In this document: positions 1,348 through 13,085 of the stretch, piece after piece
Position numbering within the stretch: position 1 is the stretch's first letter
Layout of the letters: each line of letters opens with the position of its first letter
From: Candidatus Eiseniibacteriota bacterium
GTDB lineage: Bacteria > Eisenbacteria > RBG-16-71-46
DNA: 22,597 bases
Direction: 5' to 3'
NCBI GenBank assembly: GCA_044222065.1
Contig: JBGAOA010000068.1
Span: forward strand, 1-22,597
The notes under the pieces: generated by a model
What the model was told of the DNA's origin: nothing
Database searches by the model: none
What the model saw: only the letters and a program-made list of their open reading frames with translations
Position numbers and translations under genes: made by a program

Positions 1348-4872
<3,525 letters not shown>

Positions 4873-5839: not shown

Positions 5840-6658
5840 ATGAAGCAGACGTTCGCCGCCCTCGCGGCCGTCCTCGCGCTCGCCGCGCTCGTCGCGCCGA
5901 ACGCGGCGCACGCGCTCTCGGGCCCGGCCGTGGATCCGAAGGCGCCGTGCTTCCGCTGGCCGGCCGTGGACTACGACGGCGATGGCGTGTACGACCGCGT
6001 GGACAACTGCGTGGACACGCCCAAGGGCTGCGCGGTCGACAAGTTCGGCTGCGAGTACGACACCGACGGCGACGGCGTGTGCGACGGCATCGATCAGTGC
6101 CTCAACACGCCGAAGGGCGCCAAGGTGAACGCGACCGGCTGCAGCGAGTCGCAGCTCGGCCAGAAGAGCACGCCGCCGCCGCCCCCGCCGCCGGCGAAGC
6201 CGGTCGAGACGCCGAAGCCGGCGCCGGTCGAGACGCCGAAGCCCGTGAGCGAAGTCGAGCGCAAGCTCGTCGAGACCGGCCGCATCCGTCTCGAGAACAT
6301 CTACTTCGAGACGAACAGCGCGAAGCTGCTGCCGGAGTCCGAGGCGACGCTCAACGAGGTTGGCCAGACGCTCGAGAAGTTCGGCGAGCTGAAGATCGAG
6401 ATCCAGGGCCACACCGACACGCGCGGCGCCGCGGCGTACAACCAGCGCCTGAGCCAGTCGCGTGCGGAATCCGTGCGCGCGTACCTGCTCGAACACTTCC
6501 AGCTCAAGCCGGACAACTACGTCGCGAAGGGCTACGGCGAGTCGAAGCCGGAGACGCAGGAACGCAACGACGAGGAACTGCTGCGCAACCGCCGCGTCGA
6601 GCTGCAGGTGCTCAACCCGGACGCGCTGCCGCACGGCATCCAGGTCGAGAAGAAGTAG
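5840..6658 (+). CDS. OmpA-family peptidoglycan-binding protein with thrombospondin type-3-like Ca-binding repeats
   Basis: AGGAGG RBS; signal peptide ending AHA; two DxDGDGVxDxxDxC repeats; Pro-rich linker; OmpA_C motifs IYFETNSA, IQGHTD, YNQRLSQSRA, GYGESKP, NRRVE. Confidence 0.95.
   Translation: MKQTFAALAAVLALAALVAPNAAHALSGPAVDPKAPCFRWPAVDYDGDGVYDRVDNCVDTPKGCAVDKFGCEYDTDGDGVCDGIDQCLNTPKGAKVNATGCSESQLGQKSTPPPPPPPAKPVETPKPAPVETPKPVSEVERKLVETGRIRLENIYFETNSAKLLPESEATLNEVGQTLEKFGELKIEIQGHTDTRGAAAYNQRLSQSRAESVRAYLLEHFQLKPDNYVAKGYGESKPETQERNDEELLRNRRVELQVLNPDALPHGIQVEKK
6199..6243 (+). repeat. 24-bp-period coding tandem repeat (PVETPKP x2) in the OmpA linker
   Basis: GCCGGTCGAGACGCCGAAGCC at 6199-6219 and 6223-6243. 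Confidence 0.85.
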
Positions 6659-6840: not shown

Positions 6841-6967
6841 CCGGGCCCCGTTTGAAGAGCCGACGGCCGCGTTGGCTCGGGCGCTCGTCACTGCGGAGCA
6901 TCCTGCGGATGCACCTCGCTCCTCGCTCCCTCGCCGCCTTGCATTCGGTTCTTCAAACGAGGCCCGG
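6841..6967. repeat. 127-bp imperfect palindromic (REP/MITE-like) element
   Basis: Terminal arms CCGGGCCCCGTTTGAAGAGCCGA (6841-6863) and TCGGTTCTTCAAACGAGGCCCGG (6945-6967) are 21/23 complementary; central hairpin GCATCC-tgc-GGATGC (6898-6912). Confidence 0.7.
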
Positions 6968-7082: not shown

Positions 7083-7937
7083 CTACTCCTTCTCGATCGC
7101 CTCGATCGCGCTCAGCGCATCGATCCGTTTCTGAAACACGTCCTTGTCGCGCTCGGCGGCGTCGGACGTGCGATCGGCGCGCGCCTTCATCGCGGCGAGC
7201 GTCTGGCGCTCGAGCTCGCGCACCTGCTTGCGCAACCGGAGCGCGCGCGCGGCGACGTCCGCGCTCGAGGCGCCGCCCGTCGCCTCGAACGCCGCGCGCG
7301 CCTCGGCGAGCTTGAGCTCGAGTTCGCCCGCGCGCGCCGTCGCCTCGCCCGCCGACTTCACGGCATTGAGCCGCGCGATCTCGGCGGTCTCGACGTCGGC
7401 GAGGCGGCCGAGCAGCTTGAGCTCGAGTTCGGCGGCGTCCGAGAGGCGCTGCTGCTCGCCGCGCGTCACCTCGTCCTTCGCCTTCTTCGCCGCCGCCACC
7501 TTCGCGCGCAGCGCCTCGAGCTCGCGCTTCTTCACCTGCACGCGGCCCTTCGCCGCGGTCTCGCGGATGCGCGCCTCGCGCACCGCGCCCTCGGCGGCGC
7601 TCGCCGAGGCGCGCGCGCCGTCCATCTCGCGCTGCACGTCGCCTGCGGCGCGCGGCACAATCACGCGCCGCAGCGCGTCCTCGACGAGATCGGGCGAGAA
7701 CGCCGGAGCGGGCGCCGCGGGCGGCGCGGCCGGGGCCGGCGTCGAGACCGTGATCGGCGCCGGAGCGGACGCGGCGGCGCTGTCGGCCGGCGCCGGCGTG
7801 TCGGTCGCGCCCTGCGCGAACGAGCGCGGGGCGACGAACAGCATTCCGAGCGCGAGGGCGGCGAGCAGCAGGCCGAGCGCGAGCGCGATGCGGCGCGCCC
7901 GCCGGGCGAGCGGGGAGGCGTTCGAGTTCTGCGTCAC
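7083..7937 (-). CDS. Hypothetical exported or membrane-anchored coiled-coil protein
   Basis: GGAGG RBS, GTG start; basic N-terminus plus hydrophobic segment ending SFA; Pro/Ala linker; ~190 aa of A/E/K/R/L-rich helical sequence. Confidence 0.75.
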   Translation of the reverse strand: MTQNSNASPLARRARRIALALGLLLAALALGMLFVAPRSFAQGATDTPAPADSAAASAPAPITVSTPAPAAPPAAPAPAFSPDLVEDALRRVIVPRAAGDVQREMDGARASASAAEGAVREARIRETAAKGRVQVKKRELEALRAKVAAAKKAKDEVTRGEQQRLSDAAELELKLLGRLADVETAEIARLNAVKSAGEATARAGELELKLAEARAAFEATGGASSADVAARALRLRKQVRELERQTLAAMKARADRTSDAAERDKDVFQKRIDALSAIEAIEKE

Positions 7938-7968
7938 GGCGATGAACCTCCGAAAGGGCGCCGGCCGC

Positions 7969-8808
7969 TCAGGCGGCGGGCGCGTCGAGTCGGCGAACGA
8001 CGGAGTCGAGGAACGCGCTGTTCGGAACCGCGAACGTGCTGCCGCCGGACTCGAGCAGCGTCTGCGTGGCGCTGATCGCGCGCACGCGACCGCGCGTGCC
8101 GGCCATCTCGACGTCCTGGCCGACGGCGAAGTGGCGGCGCGCGTAGAAGCCGGCGACGAGGTTGCGCGTCGTGTCGCGCGTGCCGAGCCCGAACGTGAGC
8201 CCGAACGCGAGTGCGGCGCCCGAGAACACGACGATCGTGAGGATGTTCAGGATGCGCGTGTCCACCTGCAGCTGGCCGAGCGCGATGATCACCGCCACGA
8301 ACACCGTGAAGCCCGAGAGCGCGCTGCCGAGCGAGCGCGCGAACGCGAGCCCCGAGTCGCGCGCGTAGGCGACGACGGCGCGCGCGAGGAACTGCCCGAG
8401 CGCGTTCCCGAGCAGCAGGATGAGCGCGGCCGAGAGCAGGTTCGGGAGGAACGCGAAGAACGCCGTGATGCCGTTCGCGATCTGGGCCAGCCCGACCATG
8501 CCGGCGGCCGACTGCACGAAGACGAGCATGACGAGCCAGAACAGGAGCCGCGGCACGAAGTCGCGCGAGAAATCGTGGATGCCGACGCGCTGGAGCCCGT
8601 CGAGCAGCCCCGACTTCTCGAGCGCCGTGTCGAGCCGCGCGCGGTACAGCACCTGGCCGACGACGACCGCGAGCAGCTTCGCGATCACGAGCGCGATCAG
8701 CACGAGCACGATTGCCGTGACGAGCCGCGGCGCGTAGTGCACGGCGCTCTGCGCGAGGTCGCGCAGCACCTGCATCACCGCGCCCTGAATCGTGAAGTTC
8801 GAGTCCAT
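7969..8808 (-). CDS. Small-conductance mechanosensitive channel family protein (CmpX-like, conserved TM-helix repeats)
   Basis: Two TM_helix-type repeats (HYAPRLVTAIVLVLI, AFLPNLLSAALILLLG); ALGQLQVDT; pore-helix-like ALAFGLTFGLG; NLVAGFY; beta domain FAVGQDVE...GRVRAI...VPNS. AAGGAG RBS before ATG 8808. Confidence 0.9.
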   Translation of the reverse strand: MDSNFTIQGAVMQVLRDLAQSAVHYAPRLVTAIVLVLIALVIAKLLAVVVGQVLYRARLDTALEKSGLLDGLQRVGIHDFSRDFVPRLLFWLVMLVFVQSAAGMVGLAQIANGITAFFAFLPNLLSAALILLLGNALGQFLARAVVAYARDSGLAFARSLGSALSGFTVFVAVIIALGQLQVDTRILNILTIVVFSGAALAFGLTFGLGTRDTTRNLVAGFYARRHFAVGQDVEMAGTRGRVRAISATQTLLESGGSTFAVPNSAFLDSVVRRLDAPAA

Positions 8809-8810
8809 GC

Positions 8811-9050
8811 TCAGCTCCTTCCGTCCTCGTCCTTGACCCCGAGCGCGCGGAACAACGACTGGAGCAGTTCCGCGACGAACCCGGTGAGACCCCACCACGA
8901 GAATTCGAGCGCCTGCGCCGTCGCCTGCCGGCGCTGGATGCCGTCGAGCACGTTCGAGAGGAAGCGGTCCGAGGGCGCCTCCGCGAGGTCCGCGAGTTCC
9001 GCAACCGGCTCGCCGGCTTCGGCGTCGCGCGCGCCGTCGTCGGTCGTCAT
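8811..9050 (-). CDS. 79-aa hypothetical protein, putative anti-sigma factor
   Basis: GGAGG RBS, ATG 9050, 10 nt after the sigma stop; LAEAPSDRFLSNVLDGI resembles the P..F...V helix of anti-sigma domains; amphipathic C-terminal segment FSWWGLTGFVAELLQSLF. Confidence 0.7.
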   Translation of the reverse strand: MTTDDGARDAEAGEPVAELADLAEAPSDRFLSNVLDGIQRRQATAQALEFSWWGLTGFVAELLQSLFRALGVKDEDGRS

Positions 9051-9060
9051 CGCGCCTCCC

Positions 9061-9645
9061 TCAACGCGCCACGGGCTCCGCTCCGCGGTCGAGACGCGCG
9101 TAGCGCCGGCGGAAGTCCTCCCGCGCGCGCGCGATGCGCATCTTCGTCGCCGACAGCCCGAGCCCGAGCGTCTCCTGGATCTCGCGGTACGAGAGCCCGT
9201 CCACGTCGCACAGGATGAGCGGCACGCGCAGCGAGTCCGGCATCGCATCGAGCACCGCGCGGATGCGGCGTCGCTCCTCGTCCGCCTCGACCGTTGCCTC
9301 GGCCTCGGGCGCGACGCGCAGCGCTTCGTCCGTCTCGAGCGCCGGATCGCCGACGTCCACTTCGGTGCGGCGGCGGCGCGATTTCAGGTAGTTCAGACAA
9401 TGATTGACCTTGATGCGCTGGACCCAGGTGCGGAACGACGAGCGTTCCTCGAACGTCGCGAGCCGGAAGAATGCCTTCACGAACACGTCCTGCGCGAGGT
9501 CTTCCGCGTCGTCGGGCGAGCGCGTGAGGTAGCGGCAGTTCGCGACGACGGACGCCTGGTGCCGACGCACCAGCTCCTCGAACGCAGCCGTATCGCCTTC
9601 CGATGCCAGCTTCGCCGCGCGCACCAGCTCTTCGTCGGGCTTCAT
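9061..9645 (-). CDS. ECF-type RNA polymerase sigma-70 factor
   Basis: GDTAAFEELV; region 2 DAEDLAQDVF and SFRTW; region 4 GLSYREIQETLG...TKMRIARAR; 194 aa with no region 3; GGAGG RBS. Confidence 0.96.
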   Translation of the reverse strand: MKPDEELVRAAKLASEGDTAAFEELVRRHQASVVANCRYLTRSPDDAEDLAQDVFVKAFFRLATFEERSSFRTWVQRIKVNHCLNYLKSRRRRTEVDVGDPALETDEALRVAPEAEATVEADEERRRIRAVLDAMPDSLRVPLILCDVDGLSYREIQETLGLGLSATKMRIARAREDFRRRYARLDRGAEPVAR

Positions 9646-9659
9646 GCGCCCACCTCCGT

Positions 9660-9686
9660 CCGACCATCGCGCCGGGCAAAAGTCAC
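9660..9686 (-). promoter_or_regulatory. Putative ECF promoter for the sigma operon (autoregulatory)
   Basis: Minus strand GTGACTTTT-GCCCGGCGCGATG-GTCGG immediately before GGAGG and the ATG; twin of the motif at 9805. Confidence 0.65.
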
Positions 9687-9804
9687 GCGACTTCGGGCCG
9701 CGAACGCGGACGCACGACGGGCGCCGTTCGAGTTGGGCCGGAGCGCGAGGGGCAAGGGCACGGGGAACCTAGCCGGAATTTCTTGGACGAGGAAGGACGA
9801 TTGT

Positions 9805-9831
9805 GTGACTTTTCGCCTCCGCCCTTGTCTG
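9805..9831 (+). promoter_or_regulatory. Putative ECF promoter for mscL
   Basis: GTGACTTTT-CGCCTCCGCCCTT-GTCTG, same boxes and same 13-nt spacer as the motif at 9660-9686. Confidence 0.65.
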
Positions 9832-9947
9832 TGCCCCCGGAGCGGGCGGTTCGGGACCCCGTCGACGCGCTGCATCTCGCCAACACGACCTGACCCCGGC
9901 GGACTCGACCGCTCGTCTCCATCCCGCTCGCATCGGAGACCCCGCAC

Positions 9948-10349
9948 ATGCTCGAAGACTTCAAGAAGTTCCTGCTGCAGACGAACGCGCTCGCCCTCGC
10001 GGTCGGCGTCATCATCGGCGGAGCGGTCGGCAAGGTCGTCGGCTCGCTCGTGAGCGACGTCCTCATGCCGCTGATCAGCACGGCGCTTCCGGGCGGCGGC
10101 TGGCGCGAGGCGAAGTTCGTGCTGGCGACGAACGACAAGGGCGACGTCACGAACGCCGTGACCTACGGCGCGTTCTTCGGCGCCATCGTGGACTTCGTCA
10201 TCATCGCGGCCGTCGTGTTCATGATCACGAAGGCGCTCTTGAAGCCCGCGCCCGCCGCGCCGGCGCCGCCGACCAAGGTGTGCAACGCCTGCAAGGAGAC
10301 GATCCCGGCGGACGCGACGAAGTGCCGCGCCTGCACGTCGGCCGTCTGA
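9948..10349 (+). CDS. mscL: Large-conductance mechanosensitive channel with C-terminal CxxC...CxxC tail
   Basis: MLEDFKKFLLQTNALALAVGVIIGGAVGKVVGSLVSDVLMPLI; YGAFFGAIVDFVIIA; GGAG RBS. Confidence 0.96.
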   Translation: MLEDFKKFLLQTNALALAVGVIIGGAVGKVVGSLVSDVLMPLISTALPGGGWREAKFVLATNDKGDVTNAVTYGAFFGAIVDFVIIAAVVFMITKALLKPAPAAPAPPTKVCNACKETIPADATKCRACTSAV

Positions 10350-10442
10350 CCGGCGGCGCGTTTCCAGCCCGTTGACGTTCGCGCCGCGAGGCGGCGGCGC
10401 CCGGAGAGGTTCGCTCCGGCGCGCGCACCTCGCGGCGTTTTC

Positions 10443-10469
10443 TTGACCTGCCCGCAACTCCACCGTCCG
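10443..10469 (+). promoter_or_regulatory. Degenerate third copy of the ECF-like motif
   Basis: TTGAC-N17-GTCCG, 38 nt before the GTG at 10508; lacks the T-tract. Confidence 0.3.
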
Positions 10470-10507
10470 GCGCCGCCGGCGCCGGCGTTCCCTTTCGAGG
10501 AGCAGCC

Positions 10508-11551
10508 GTGAGATTCGTGCCCGTCATTCTGATTGCCGCCGTTCTCGCCTCCCCCGCACTCGCCGAGGACGCGAAGAAGCCCGCGGAGCCGGGACCGTGG
10601 AAGCTCGGCAGCACGCTCGGACTCAACCTGTCGCAGAGCTCGTTCAGCACGAACTGGGCGGGCGGCGACAAGGGCTCGATCGTCTGGGTGCTGAACACGA
10701 ACACGACCGCCGAGCGCCAGTTCACGAAGACGTTCAACCTGCAGAACGTGCTGCAGCTCGCCTACGGCCAGACGACGCGCCAGGTCGTGCCCGATGCCGC
10801 GAAGCCCGACGAGCGCGTGTGGGACGAGCCGGACAAGACGACGGACCAGATCGCGTTCGAGTCCACCGGCCGCTTCACGTTCGGCGGCTTCGTGGATCCG
10901 TACCTCGGCCTGCGGCTCGACTCGCAGTTCCGCGACGAATCGTTCGAGCCGATCGGCACGATCGACTTCAACCCGGTGAAGCTCAAGGAGAGCGCCGGCA
11001 TCGCGCGTGTGCTCGAGAAGACCGACGACAAGGAGACGATCACGCGCCTCGGCTTCGGCTTCCGCCAGACGCTCGCGAAGAGCTTCACCGACCCCGTGGC
11101 GAAGACGAAGGCGAGCTACACGACGAACGACGGCGGCCTCGAGTGGGTGACGACGGCGACGCGGCCGATGTTCGAGAAGAAGGTGCTCTACAAGGGCTCG
11201 CTGCTCGTGTTCCAGCCGGTGTTCTATTCGAAGTCGGACGCGCTCGAGCAGTTCGACGCGCGCGTGAAGACGGGCGAGGGCGCGGTTCCCGCGAACCCCG
11301 CCGCCGAGGCGGTCGCCGACTTCTGGAAGGCGACCGACGTGAACTGGCAGAACACCTTCACCGCGCAGATCACGAAGCACATCGGCGTCACGCTGTTCGC
11401 GCAGTGGGTGTACGACAAGTTCGACGCCGCGGCGAACGTGGATCCGAAGCTGCCGCTCGCGGTGCAGATCGCCGAGGTGAAGCGGAACACGCGCAAGGCC
11501 GGCCAGTTCAAGGAGACGCTCGCGCTGTCGTTCACGTACGCGCTGTTCTAG
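10508..11551 (+). CDS. Outer-membrane beta-barrel protein, DUF3078-like
   Basis: GAGGAG RBS; signal peptide ending ALA; W...LNLSQSSFSTNWAGG, LQLAYGQ and KTTD motifs; BAM-type C-terminus LALSFTYALF. Confidence 0.82.
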   Translation: MRFVPVILIAAVLASPALAEDAKKPAEPGPWKLGSTLGLNLSQSSFSTNWAGGDKGSIVWVLNTNTTAERQFTKTFNLQNVLQLAYGQTTRQVVPDAAKPDERVWDEPDKTTDQIAFESTGRFTFGGFVDPYLGLRLDSQFRDESFEPIGTIDFNPVKLKESAGIARVLEKTDDKETITRLGFGFRQTLAKSFTDPVAKTKASYTTNDGGLEWVTTATRPMFEKKVLYKGSLLVFQPVFYSKSDALEQFDARVKTGEGAVPANPAAEAVADFWKATDVNWQNTFTAQITKHIGVTLFAQWVYDKFDAAANVDPKLPLAVQIAEVKRNTRKAGQFKETLALSFTYALF

Positions 11552-12093: not shown

Positions 12094-12588
12094 TTACTCC
12101 TTCGCGCGCCACGCACGCTTCCCGCCCGGGGCCGCCGGGCCCGGTACGCCGGCGAGCGCTCCGGCGTGGCGCCCGAGCAGCGCCGCCCACGCGAGCGGCG
12201 GCGCGACCCACGGGAACGACGCCGCGACGCCGTTGCGAACGCCGAGCAGCGCGGCCGGCAGCGGGTGTCCCATTTCGCCGCGCAGGAACATCCAGGTCGC
12301 GAGCGTTGCGAACGCGACCTCGGCCGCGACGAGCGCCGGCACGCCGACGAGCAGCGCGAGCGCGCGTTCGGCGCGCGGCGCCCGCGTCGTCGCGAGCACC
12401 ATCGCGACGAAGAACGCGAGGTCGTAGGGCGCGAGCAGGTCGAGCGTCTGGACTTCGAACGGGATGCCGAGCGCGCCGACGCCCCACGACACCGCGGGCA
12501 CGAGCAGCGCGTGCCAGCGGTCGAGTCCGAGCCAGGCGAGCGGGAAGAGCAGCAGCGCGAACAGCGCGAAGCGCGCCCAGCCGTTCAT
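12094..12588 (-). CDS. Exosortase-associated membrane protein (164 aa)
   Basis: ATGA overlap with the upstream exosortase; about 4 hydrophobic segments; LAFFVAMVLAT..PRAERALALLVG parallels the exosortase helix pair but has no Cys. Confidence 0.65.
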   Translation of the reverse strand: MNGWARFALFALLLFPLAWLGLDRWHALLVPAVSWGVGALGIPFEVQTLDLLAPYDLAFFVAMVLATTRAPRAERALALLVGVPALVAAEVAFATLATWMFLRGEMGHPLPAALLGVRNGVAASFPWVAPPLAWAALLGRHAGALAGVPGPAAPGGKRAWRAKE

Positions 12589-13085
12589 GCCGGACGCGGC
12601 GCGGCCGCGCGCGCCCACAGCAGGAACAGCCCGAGCAGGAACACGATCGTGAACGCCTGCCACAGCACGCCGTGGACGAGATCGAACAGCGCCGGCCTCG
12701 TCGCGAGCACCGCGAACGACACGAGCACGCGCACGACGTTGTAGACCCAGAGCAGCGGCAGCGCGGCCGCGAGCCCGACGAGCCGCGCGCGCCACGTCGC
12801 GGGGAACGCGAGGATCGCCGCGGCGAGTGTGGCGAACGGGAACACCGGCGTGCAGTCCGGGATGATGCGCACCTGCGCCGCGCCGGCCGCGAGCACGTCG
12901 GCAAGGATGTGCGCGCGGATGCCGAACAGCGCGAGCGCGGCGCGCGAGGAATGCAGCGTGCCGGTGATCGCGCCCGACAGGATCGCCGGCACGAGCGCCA
13001 CGACGCCGAGCAGAACGCCCCAGACGACGAGGAAGCGCAGGATGAAGCCGAGCGCGGGATTCGGTGCCGGACGGGGCGCGGACAT
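12585..13085 (-). CDS. Exosortase/archaeosortase family transpeptidase, exosortase H-like
   Basis: VRIIPDCT (Cys), AILAFPATWRARLVG, NVVR (Arg), FDLVHGVLWQ (His); compact 166 aa as in XrtH. Confidence 0.85.
   Translation of the reverse strand: MSAPRPAPNPALGFILRFLVVWGVLLGVVALVPAILSGAITGTLHSSRAALALFGIRAHILADVLAAGAAQVRIIPDCTPVFPFATLAAAILAFPATWRARLVGLAAALPLLWVYNVVRVLVSFAVLATRPALFDLVHGVLWQAFTIVFLLGLFLLWARAAAPRPA

Follow-up and report, generated by a model that had tools for sequence, protein, structure and literature searches.

A probable SigX-CfrX-CmpX-type sigma factor switch beside mscL in an uncultured Eisenbacteria lineage

The 22,597 nucleotides (nt) analyzed of contig JBGAOA010000068.1 from Candidatus Eiseniibacteriota bacterium (assembly GCA_044222065.1), hereafter the window, contain in positions 7083-11551 six genes arranged around an extracytoplasmic function (ECF) sigma factor. 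The best explanation of this locus, to which we assign a probability of about 0.8, is a SigX-CfrX-CmpX (ECF102-type) envelope-stress switch, autoregulated and carried by an uncultured lineage. That the locus works like SigX-CfrX-CmpX is held with high confidence.

In Pseudomonas aeruginosa, SigX is encoded alongside CfrX (a presumed anti-sigma factor of 84 amino acids, aa), CmpX and OprF, and it is the sole ECF102 member to have been studied (PMC7641640, PMC7826278). The members listed for ECF102 belong to Bacteroidetes and Gammaproteobacteria; three subgroups of it conserve the channel, and its promoter motifs are reported to lack conservation (PMC7826278); the SigX consensus is described as not precisely defined (PMC7641640). 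Mechanosensing by CmpX and CfrX has been proposed in Pseudomonas and is unproven (PMC8999054, PMC8871633, PMC7826278). The original prediction for this DNA, made by a model from the letters alone, suggested that the arrangement might be undescribed; that suggestion fails, given that this is the "mechanosensing" arrangement of SigX-CfrX-CmpX/ECF102 (PMC7826278, PMC7641640, PMC8999054).

Locus organization

The list of open reading frames (ORFs) and translations gives a minus-strand operon of four genes, with intergenic gaps of 10, 2 and 31 nt, and divergent from it, on the plus strand, mscL followed by a DUF3078 gene. The sigma gene and mscL are 302 nt apart, and mscL and the DUF3078 gene 158 nt. 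The ORFs and Pfam matches confirm the gene order, gaps and divergence from mscL-DUF3078 that had been read from the sequence at first. The features are as follows.

9061-9645, minus strand: ECF sigma factor, 194 aa, of a SigX/ECF102-like clade (PF04542 and PF08281)
8811-9050, minus strand: putative anti-sigma factor, 79 aa, positional equivalent of CfrX (family of cluster representatives, complex model, hydropathy)
7969-8808, minus strand: CmpX-type MscS-like membrane protein, 279 aa (PF05552 twice, PF00924)
7083-7937, minus strand: exported coiled-coil protein, 284 aa, accessory (homologues, structure model)
9659-9687, minus strand: predicted autoregulatory ECF promoter, -35 GTGACTTTT, -10 GTCGGA (22.2 bits, genome rank 2)
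9804-9832, plus strand: predicted divergent ECF promoter to mscL-DUF3078, -35 GTGACTTTT, -10 GTCTGT (32.0 bits, genome rank 1)
9948-10349, plus strand: mscL, large-conductance channel, predicted target and variable neighbour (PF01741)
10508-11551, plus strand: DUF3078 gene, probable outer-membrane protein, predicted target (PF11276)

A purine-rich stretch precedes the start of each of the six genes, and none of them has a close paralogue elsewhere in the genome. In the tree, the sigma factor clusters with genomes of the same family and with Candidatus Eisenbacteria records, its nearest named relatives. A scan for Sigma-70 promoters found none, and terminator matches occurred at chance level. 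In four metatranscriptome assemblies from sludge, short and nearly identical pieces were matched to several locus genes, without strand or start information; none of these pieces covers 9576-9779, and no expression is claimed.

Conservation of the three-gene core

With the sigma factor as query, 80 loci were retrieved, nine at 53-64% identity and 71 at no more than 39%. In 9/9 close loci cmpX lies downstream, with the small gene in between according to profile searches, and in 0/71 other ECF loci. The sources of the close loci are Eisenbacteria, Acidobacteriota, Gemmatimonadota and Myxococcota. A KM[RKI] signature in sigma region 4.2 is present in 24/24 members of the clade and in 9/9 CmpX-linked sigma factors of Bacteroidota, vs 0/96 other ECF sigma factors. 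Among metagenome loci (n = 80), 17 sigma factors carry this signature and 15 of the 17 have a cmpX match, compared with 0/63 of the rest. Within the window's own phylum, a CmpX match was obtained in 26 of 201 genomes; 20 of the 25 other than the window's own were examined in wide regions, and 17 of these present the full triad of sigma, small gene and cmpX. The remaining three show, respectively, CmpX alone, a cmpX 3' fragment with a coiled-coil gene and no sigma factor, and an unrelated ECF sigma factor. The conserved linkage of sigma, small ORF and CmpX that had been suggested is borne out by these counts.

The genes around the core were counted in 39 clade loci, near-duplicates included and many of them on short contigs, and in 134 control ECF loci. 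CmpX is the partner in 37 of the 39, the two misses being short contigs or a region not reached. Beside the sigma gene are found mscL in 7, a full MscS in 5, DUF3078 in 8, OmpA in 6 and the coiled-coil family in 3-4 loci, with any such envelope gene in 19/39. Either mscL or a full MscS adjoins the sigma gene in 11/39 clade loci vs 0/134 controls, among which an OmpA match occurs in 2/134. The three-gene core is conserved, and as passengers mscL, DUF3078, OmpA and the coiled-coil gene vary from locus to locus; the six genes as a self-contained fixed module, as first proposed, are not supported.

Other arrangements were also observed. At L130/L282 (G099 C69:32000-36500) a relic consists of a cmpX 3' fragment and an intact coiled-coil gene, without sigma or small gene, in a genome that has no match to the strict promoter motif presented below. 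Two CmpX-like genes, or a cmpX 5' of a signature-bearing sigma gene, occur at L296:3496-6332, L318:1-2485 and L002:8321-9568, nearer to the Pseudomonas order. At L111:4746-7772, from Pseudoalteromonas, a CmpX-like gene leads an operon with MgtE-like genes (labelled by sequence reading) and no sigma gene, which is reminiscent of the CorA-type cmaX next to Pseudomonas cmpX.

Promoter motif

One promoter-like motif, GTGACTTT-N13/14-[G/T]GTC, points both ways between the sigma gene and mscL. Its minus-strand copy lies 13 nt ahead of the sigma start codon and at the same position in relatives, and the upstream regions of 24 sigma genes have TGAC-N17/18-GTC in common, on both strands. The placement before the sigma gene supports the autoregulation that was expected of it, as a prediction. 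Back-to-back motif pairs are present in 10/24 loci and in 7/17 hold-out loci.

A weight matrix was built from 26 sites of relatives; the window itself was excluded from it, as were two loci that are near-duplicates and two sites of doubtful status. In the 4.2-Mb genome, the two highest-ranking sites are those of the window, first the one directed to mscL and second the one directed to the sigma gene, which confirms the earlier observation of the same motif pointing into both arms. Three sites reach at least 21 bits in the real genome, whereas two shuffled versions contain one and zero such sites; for scores under 17 bits, the real sequence is no richer in sites than the shuffles. The third-ranked site precedes an aquaporin gene (contig C28). 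The matches ranked fourth and fifth (C78 and C66) lie within genes with shuffle-level scores and were rejected as targets.

A strict version of the pattern, counted by hand over related and hence non-independent genomes, yielded 40 matches among the 18 genomes with the triad, of which 17 are positive; 25 of the matches are distant from the sigma gene, compared with 24 in the 183 other genomes; a reversed control pattern yielded 20 in all 201. Among hold-out metagenome loci, a site of at least 20 bits is present in 11/17 signature-bearing loci, one of the 11 nearly repeating a training site, vs 0/59 other ECF loci, after 4/63 controls were dropped for short flank. Four hold-out control loci reach 14-17 bits with RpoE-type sites. 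The candidate consensus passes this hold-out test and appears, in like form, in Bacteroidota homologues, though ECF102 has been described as having none.

These results also bear on an alternative in which mscL and DUF3078 are neighbours by chance and the motif is an operator or a random match, rather than the promoter of this sigma factor. Although mscL is present in 156/201 genomes of the phylum, mostly without sigma or motif, and one genome (G050) has an mscL-DUF3078 pair away from such a triad (L234), the motif consists of two blocks with ECF spacing just 5' of a start codon, and it tracks the sigma factor across genomes. Given the distance between divergent copies varies among loci, it is unlike a dimer operator. 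Immediately 5' of mscL, the motif is found in 3/16 triad-bearing genomes, one of the three being a training site, and in 3/4 metagenome loci, vs 0/29 non-triad genomes. We consider this alternative very improbable; the 3/16 does, however, count against mscL as part of a fixed regulon, and against the fixed module mentioned above.

Among the lower matrix matches, a second motif, CGTGAT[CT]TT...GGTCTCA, was noticed, several copies of which lie shortly 5' of start codons (in the window's genome, G000, at C60:37870, C123:1505, C126:111487, C87:12772, C87:1258 and C3:36207). It probably represents the regulon of another ECF sigma factor of the genome.

The putative anti-sigma factor

The 79-aa ORF is a real gene: a search at E <= 0.001 gave a family of 57 cluster representatives, almost all of which are 75-99 aa long. 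Neither Pfam nor NCBIfam has a family that it matched, and nor do the named Atlas families. Its size is close to that of CfrX, and like CfrX it is encoded directly before cmpX. A model of its complex with the sigma factor scores 0.69, compared with 0.02 for the best of three controls. This mark is reached by 116/157 solved complexes and 2/215 mismatched pairs, counts that hold roughly here since own alignments were used, and resemblance to solved sigma/anti-sigma pairs may raise the score. At least 91% of the contacts recur between runs, and the partner has a predicted local distance difference test score (pLDDT) of at least 70. In the model, residues 9-42 of the small protein lie on sigma residues 16-60 and 124-182 (regions 2 and 4). 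Anti-sigma domains contact sigma regions 2 and 4 in that manner. The model supports the earlier proposal of the small ORF as an anti-sigma factor. According to hydropathy, residues about 53-71 form an amphipathic helix, too polar for a membrane span.

The CmpX-type protein and the proposed mechanism

The model of the CmpX-type protein has a pLDDT of 85, and its best Foldseek matches are MscS (E = 7.5e-7). The canonical MscS architecture (transmembrane helices TM1-3, beta-domain, C-terminal alpha/beta domain) is not what the protein presents: the chain stops after the beta-domain, without the MscS C-terminal domain (no PF21082), as it does in 37 aligned homologues. A CmpX-type mechanosensitive channel gene in the neighbourhood, which is a criterion for ECF102, is present.

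In the mechanism we propose, the 79-aa protein would hold the sigma factor at rest, clamping regions 2 and 4 as modelled, and its amphipathic C-terminal helix would keep it at the inner membrane, probably next to CmpX, which is co-translated with it. When the tension or fluidity of the membrane changes, CmpX would be altered and the sigma factor freed, a step that is likewise proposed and unproven for Pseudomonas. The freed sigma factor is predicted to transcribe from GTGACTTT-N13/14-[G/T]GTC promoters its own operon, as feedback, and the divergent mscL-DUF3078 genes, perhaps also the distant aquaporin gene. The contact of CmpX with the small protein and its sensing of tension are putative steps, and the odds that CmpX is a sensor rather than an output are about even.

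The same regulon could also exist with CmpX as an output valve only, the signal reaching the anti-sigma factor otherwise, either through proteolysis or through direct sensing by the amphipathic helix. The MscS-like fold is consistent with this, as are the CmpX homologues that exist without a sigma factor (L111, L129, L199, L200) and the finding that in Pseudomonas cfrX-cmpX is a SigX target while cmpX overexpression leaves sigX and cfrX nearly unchanged (1.1-fold and 1.3-fold; PMC10965496). Yet CmpX is the one invariant partner (37/39 loci) while the true valves MscL and MscS vary, its gene begins only 2 nt after the small gene, and the MscS C-terminal domain is missing in all 37 aligned sequences. 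An output-only CmpX deserves to be kept in view, yet we lean against it.

Relationship to SigX and ECF102

A bridge to known systems is provided by Bacteroidota, where 11/151 genomes matched and 13 loci were inspected. The full sigma-small-cmpX order is present in 9/13, and two more have a small gene before cmpX. These loci thus share the window's gene order, there often followed by MscS or DUF3078, as well as the region-4.2 signature. Upstream of them, GTGAC[CT]-N-CGTC is present in 5/9 vs 0/29 control loci. From the supplement of PMC7826278 and from PMC7776599, we infer that they correspond to ECF102s2/s5. When a tree was constrained to unite the window and Bacteroidota clades, its log-likelihood was 25.7 better than that of the free tree, with a p-value of 0.84 in the approximately unbiased test; all sigma trees were quick trees. 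Within the genome, the sigma factor is the best match to the NCBIfam SigX model NF007222 among 24 ECF matches, though only narrowly (89 vs 85 bits).

Several results weigh against the assignment. The 89 bits are well below the model's cut-off of 194, and RpoE-type models outscore NF007222 on this sigma factor; the CmpX-linked sigma factors of Bacteroidota are likewise under the cut-off, with 81-103 bits. The window's clade is separate (Shimodaira-Hasegawa-like approximate likelihood ratio support of 100), free trees kept it apart from the Bacteroidota clade, and whole-profile scores do not pick out the two clades as nearest neighbours. Between the window and Bacteroidota families, the small proteins match weakly (hhalign, 13.5% and E = 0.002). 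The pattern counted upstream of the Bacteroidota loci was chosen after viewing the sequences. The Pseudomonas proteins were compared through published descriptions; formal ECF102 membership is likely. The system is not part of ECF102s1, the Pseudomonas subgroup.

The low model score, the unjoined clades and the weak similarity of the small proteins, together with a gene order unlike that of Pseudomonas, would also suit an independent ECF group, outside ECF102, that took up a gene of the CmpX family and so converged on an arrangement like that of SigX. We judge this unlikely: the region-4.2 signature is common to both clades and absent from the 96 other ECF sigma factors, the gene order, the -35 GTGAC motif and the DUF3078/MscS passengers are shared with Bacteroidota, and the constrained tree is the better one.

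Searches with NF007222 for SigX matched 0/21 genomes and, in a Bacteroidota sample, 0/401 genomes. No Pseudomonas-type SigX locus was found among the 80 retained metagenome loci or by searches of a plasmid collection. A first viral scan for SigX-type sigma factors returned none, and a second returned 10 matches, none of them a sigma factor. One locus titled Alphaproteobacteria (L042) has an ECF sigma factor that the tree does not separate from those of Bacteroidales, being identical to them, and is probably mislabelled; its phylum sample also contains a Bacteroidota genome.

Predicted regulon

Twelve of the 25 sigma-distant sites lie ahead of genes for DUF3078 (2), L,D-transpeptidase (2), peptidoglycan-binding proteins (2), MscS, a long CmpX, OmpA, an efflux barrel, an SdrD-like protein and an aquaporin. 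The others precede an M28 peptidase, DUF4332 (2), DUF937, a tetratricopeptide repeat protein and five proteins without a Pfam match, or are apparent chance sites (three). Across the lineage, the motif stands before turgor and envelope genes that change from one genome to another; those found behind it in relatives and in Bacteroidota support the envelope and turgor targets proposed at the outset.

The window's MscL scores 99.6 bits with PF01741 (cut-off 27.4) and 83.3 with TIGR00220 (cut-off 71), and its gene is the sole mscL match in the genome. The 158 nt between mscL and DUF3078 contain no strong motif site, so that transcription starting at the mscL promoter would continue into DUF3078. 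The motif precedes DUF3078 orthologues in four other genomes (G001, G071, G198 and G056), and DUF3078 also follows cmpX in Bacteroidota. As a separate observation, the MscL C-terminus (10279-10340) has a CxxC...CxxC double zinc-ribbon-like tail with a weak PF12773 match; full-length tailed matches are common in the family.

One further gene of the window belongs here.

5840-6658, plus strand: OmpA-domain/TSP3 gene, convergent with the operon (PF00691 and PF02412)

Only a background-level site (14.0 bits, 5690, plus strand) is present upstream of this gene, which has no barrel match, whereas barrel-OmpA genes stand behind the motif in several relatives and OmpA is among the neighbours counted above. 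It is an echo of OprF whose membership of the regulon is doubtful. The aquaporin gene was rejected as a conserved target, which also speaks against a fixed regulon: the site is present in 0/29 orthologues (6 of them from triad genomes), where a TTGAC-type promoter is found. In the window's genome (C28:3115-3887), the ECF motif occupies the position of that promoter, possibly a recent promoter switch.

Unnamed envelope-tension candidates behind the motif in separate genomes include DUF4332 (L166, L172, L002), a lipoprotein-like peptidoglycan-binding family (L275, L279, L002) and DUF937 (L178).

Exported coiled-coil protein and other features of the window

The 284-aa protein has a signal-peptide-like N-terminus with a conserved A-Q site, a Pro/Ala linker and, in its model, a three-helix coiled-coil bundle. 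Its homologues (L003, L112-L114, L130, and 36 database matches) form a family without a Pfam name, and the one at L003 has its own motif copy. Compared with PDB structures, it matched none at E <= 0.001; a BAR-type fold was not accepted, the three-helix matches being too weak (best E = 6e-3).

More tentatively, this clade may show an ancestral SigX-type job in the form of a tension-feedback circuit. CmpX would then be a truncated MscS receptor, without the cytoplasmic cage, that holds and releases a CfrX-type anti-sigma factor, and tension would directly induce valves and wall anchors (MscL, MscS, aquaporin, OmpA, L,D-transpeptidase) through one consensus across phyla, with the exported coiled-coil protein coupling the channel to the envelope. 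We regard this broader scheme as speculative and not the likelier outcome.

Elsewhere in the window, a FRG-domain gene (187-969, PF08867) and mfd (1348-4870) precede the locus. Between ompA and the operon end lies an element of about 130 nt bounded by inverted repeats (6841-6967), a dispersed repeat resembling repetitive extragenic palindromes or miniature inverted-repeat transposable elements, with 24 genome-wide matches at 79-91% identity. Two small membrane proteins (12094-13085) resemble a split exosortase by sequence reading, with no Pfam match for 12585-13085.

Comparison with known systems

Among the literature searched, in which few subscription journals are covered, nothing was found on the system of this lineage or on this consensus, and no paper names mscL among the targets of a sigma factor of this kind. 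A SigX motif is given as a figure in PMC4362757, and a published motif resembling GTGACTTT-N13/14-[G/T]GTC may exist.

In comparison with P. aeruginosa cmaX-cfrX-cmpX-sigX-oprF (SigX, ECF102s1), the locus shares these components: an ECF sigma factor, a putative anti-sigma factor of about 80 aa, a CmpX-type protein and an OmpA-domain neighbour. In both, the small gene and cmpX are under control of the sigma factor (here by prediction), and a mechanosensing role is proposed. The order differs, being sigma-small-cmpX-coiled coil here and cfrX-cmpX-sigX there. The Pseudomonas locus has CorA-type and aldolase neighbours; no CorA-type (cmaX) gene was found in the window's ORF list or in the Pfam scan of the neighbours. 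The coiled-coil gene is an addition, as are mscL and DUF3078 as predicted direct targets, and no fatty-acid regulon is apparent among the top genome motif matches. Unlike in the reports on ECF102 and SigX (PMC7826278, PMC7641640), a clear autoregulatory motif is present.

The resemblance to Bacteroidota extends to a small local regulon: Todor et al. predicted that Flavobacterial SigX homologues control only nearby cmpX and oprF homologues (PMC7776599, where PA1775 is annotated as a TM-helix-repeat protein). The differences are the separate sequence clade, small proteins only faintly alike, and a -10 element that starts with [G/T]GTC here and with CGTC there. RpoE/RseA (ECF02) has a related promoter shape, and the anti-sigma factor is predicted to clamp regions 2 and 4 in the same way. 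However, the RpoE promoter has -35 GGAACTT and -10 TCAAA (PMC12153292), whereas the -35 is GTGACTT here, the anti-sigma factor has no membrane span or periplasmic domain, and there is no RseB-like gene.

The architecture itself is known; the additions are the promoter consensus, the predicted envelope and turgor regulon and the sigma-clamp model. The known range of the system, for which the ECF102 listing has Bacteroidetes and Gammaproteobacteria, now also takes in Eisenbacteria, Acidobacteriota, Gemmatimonadota and Myxococcota. Given that the papers leave open CfrX as an anti-sigma factor, the promoter read by SigX-type sigma factors and signalling by CmpX, the locus offers a compact test kit, with two predicted promoters, a sigma/anti-sigma interface modelled at residue level and a small regulon, whereas in Pseudomonas SigX affects hundreds of genes, which mask such a regulon.

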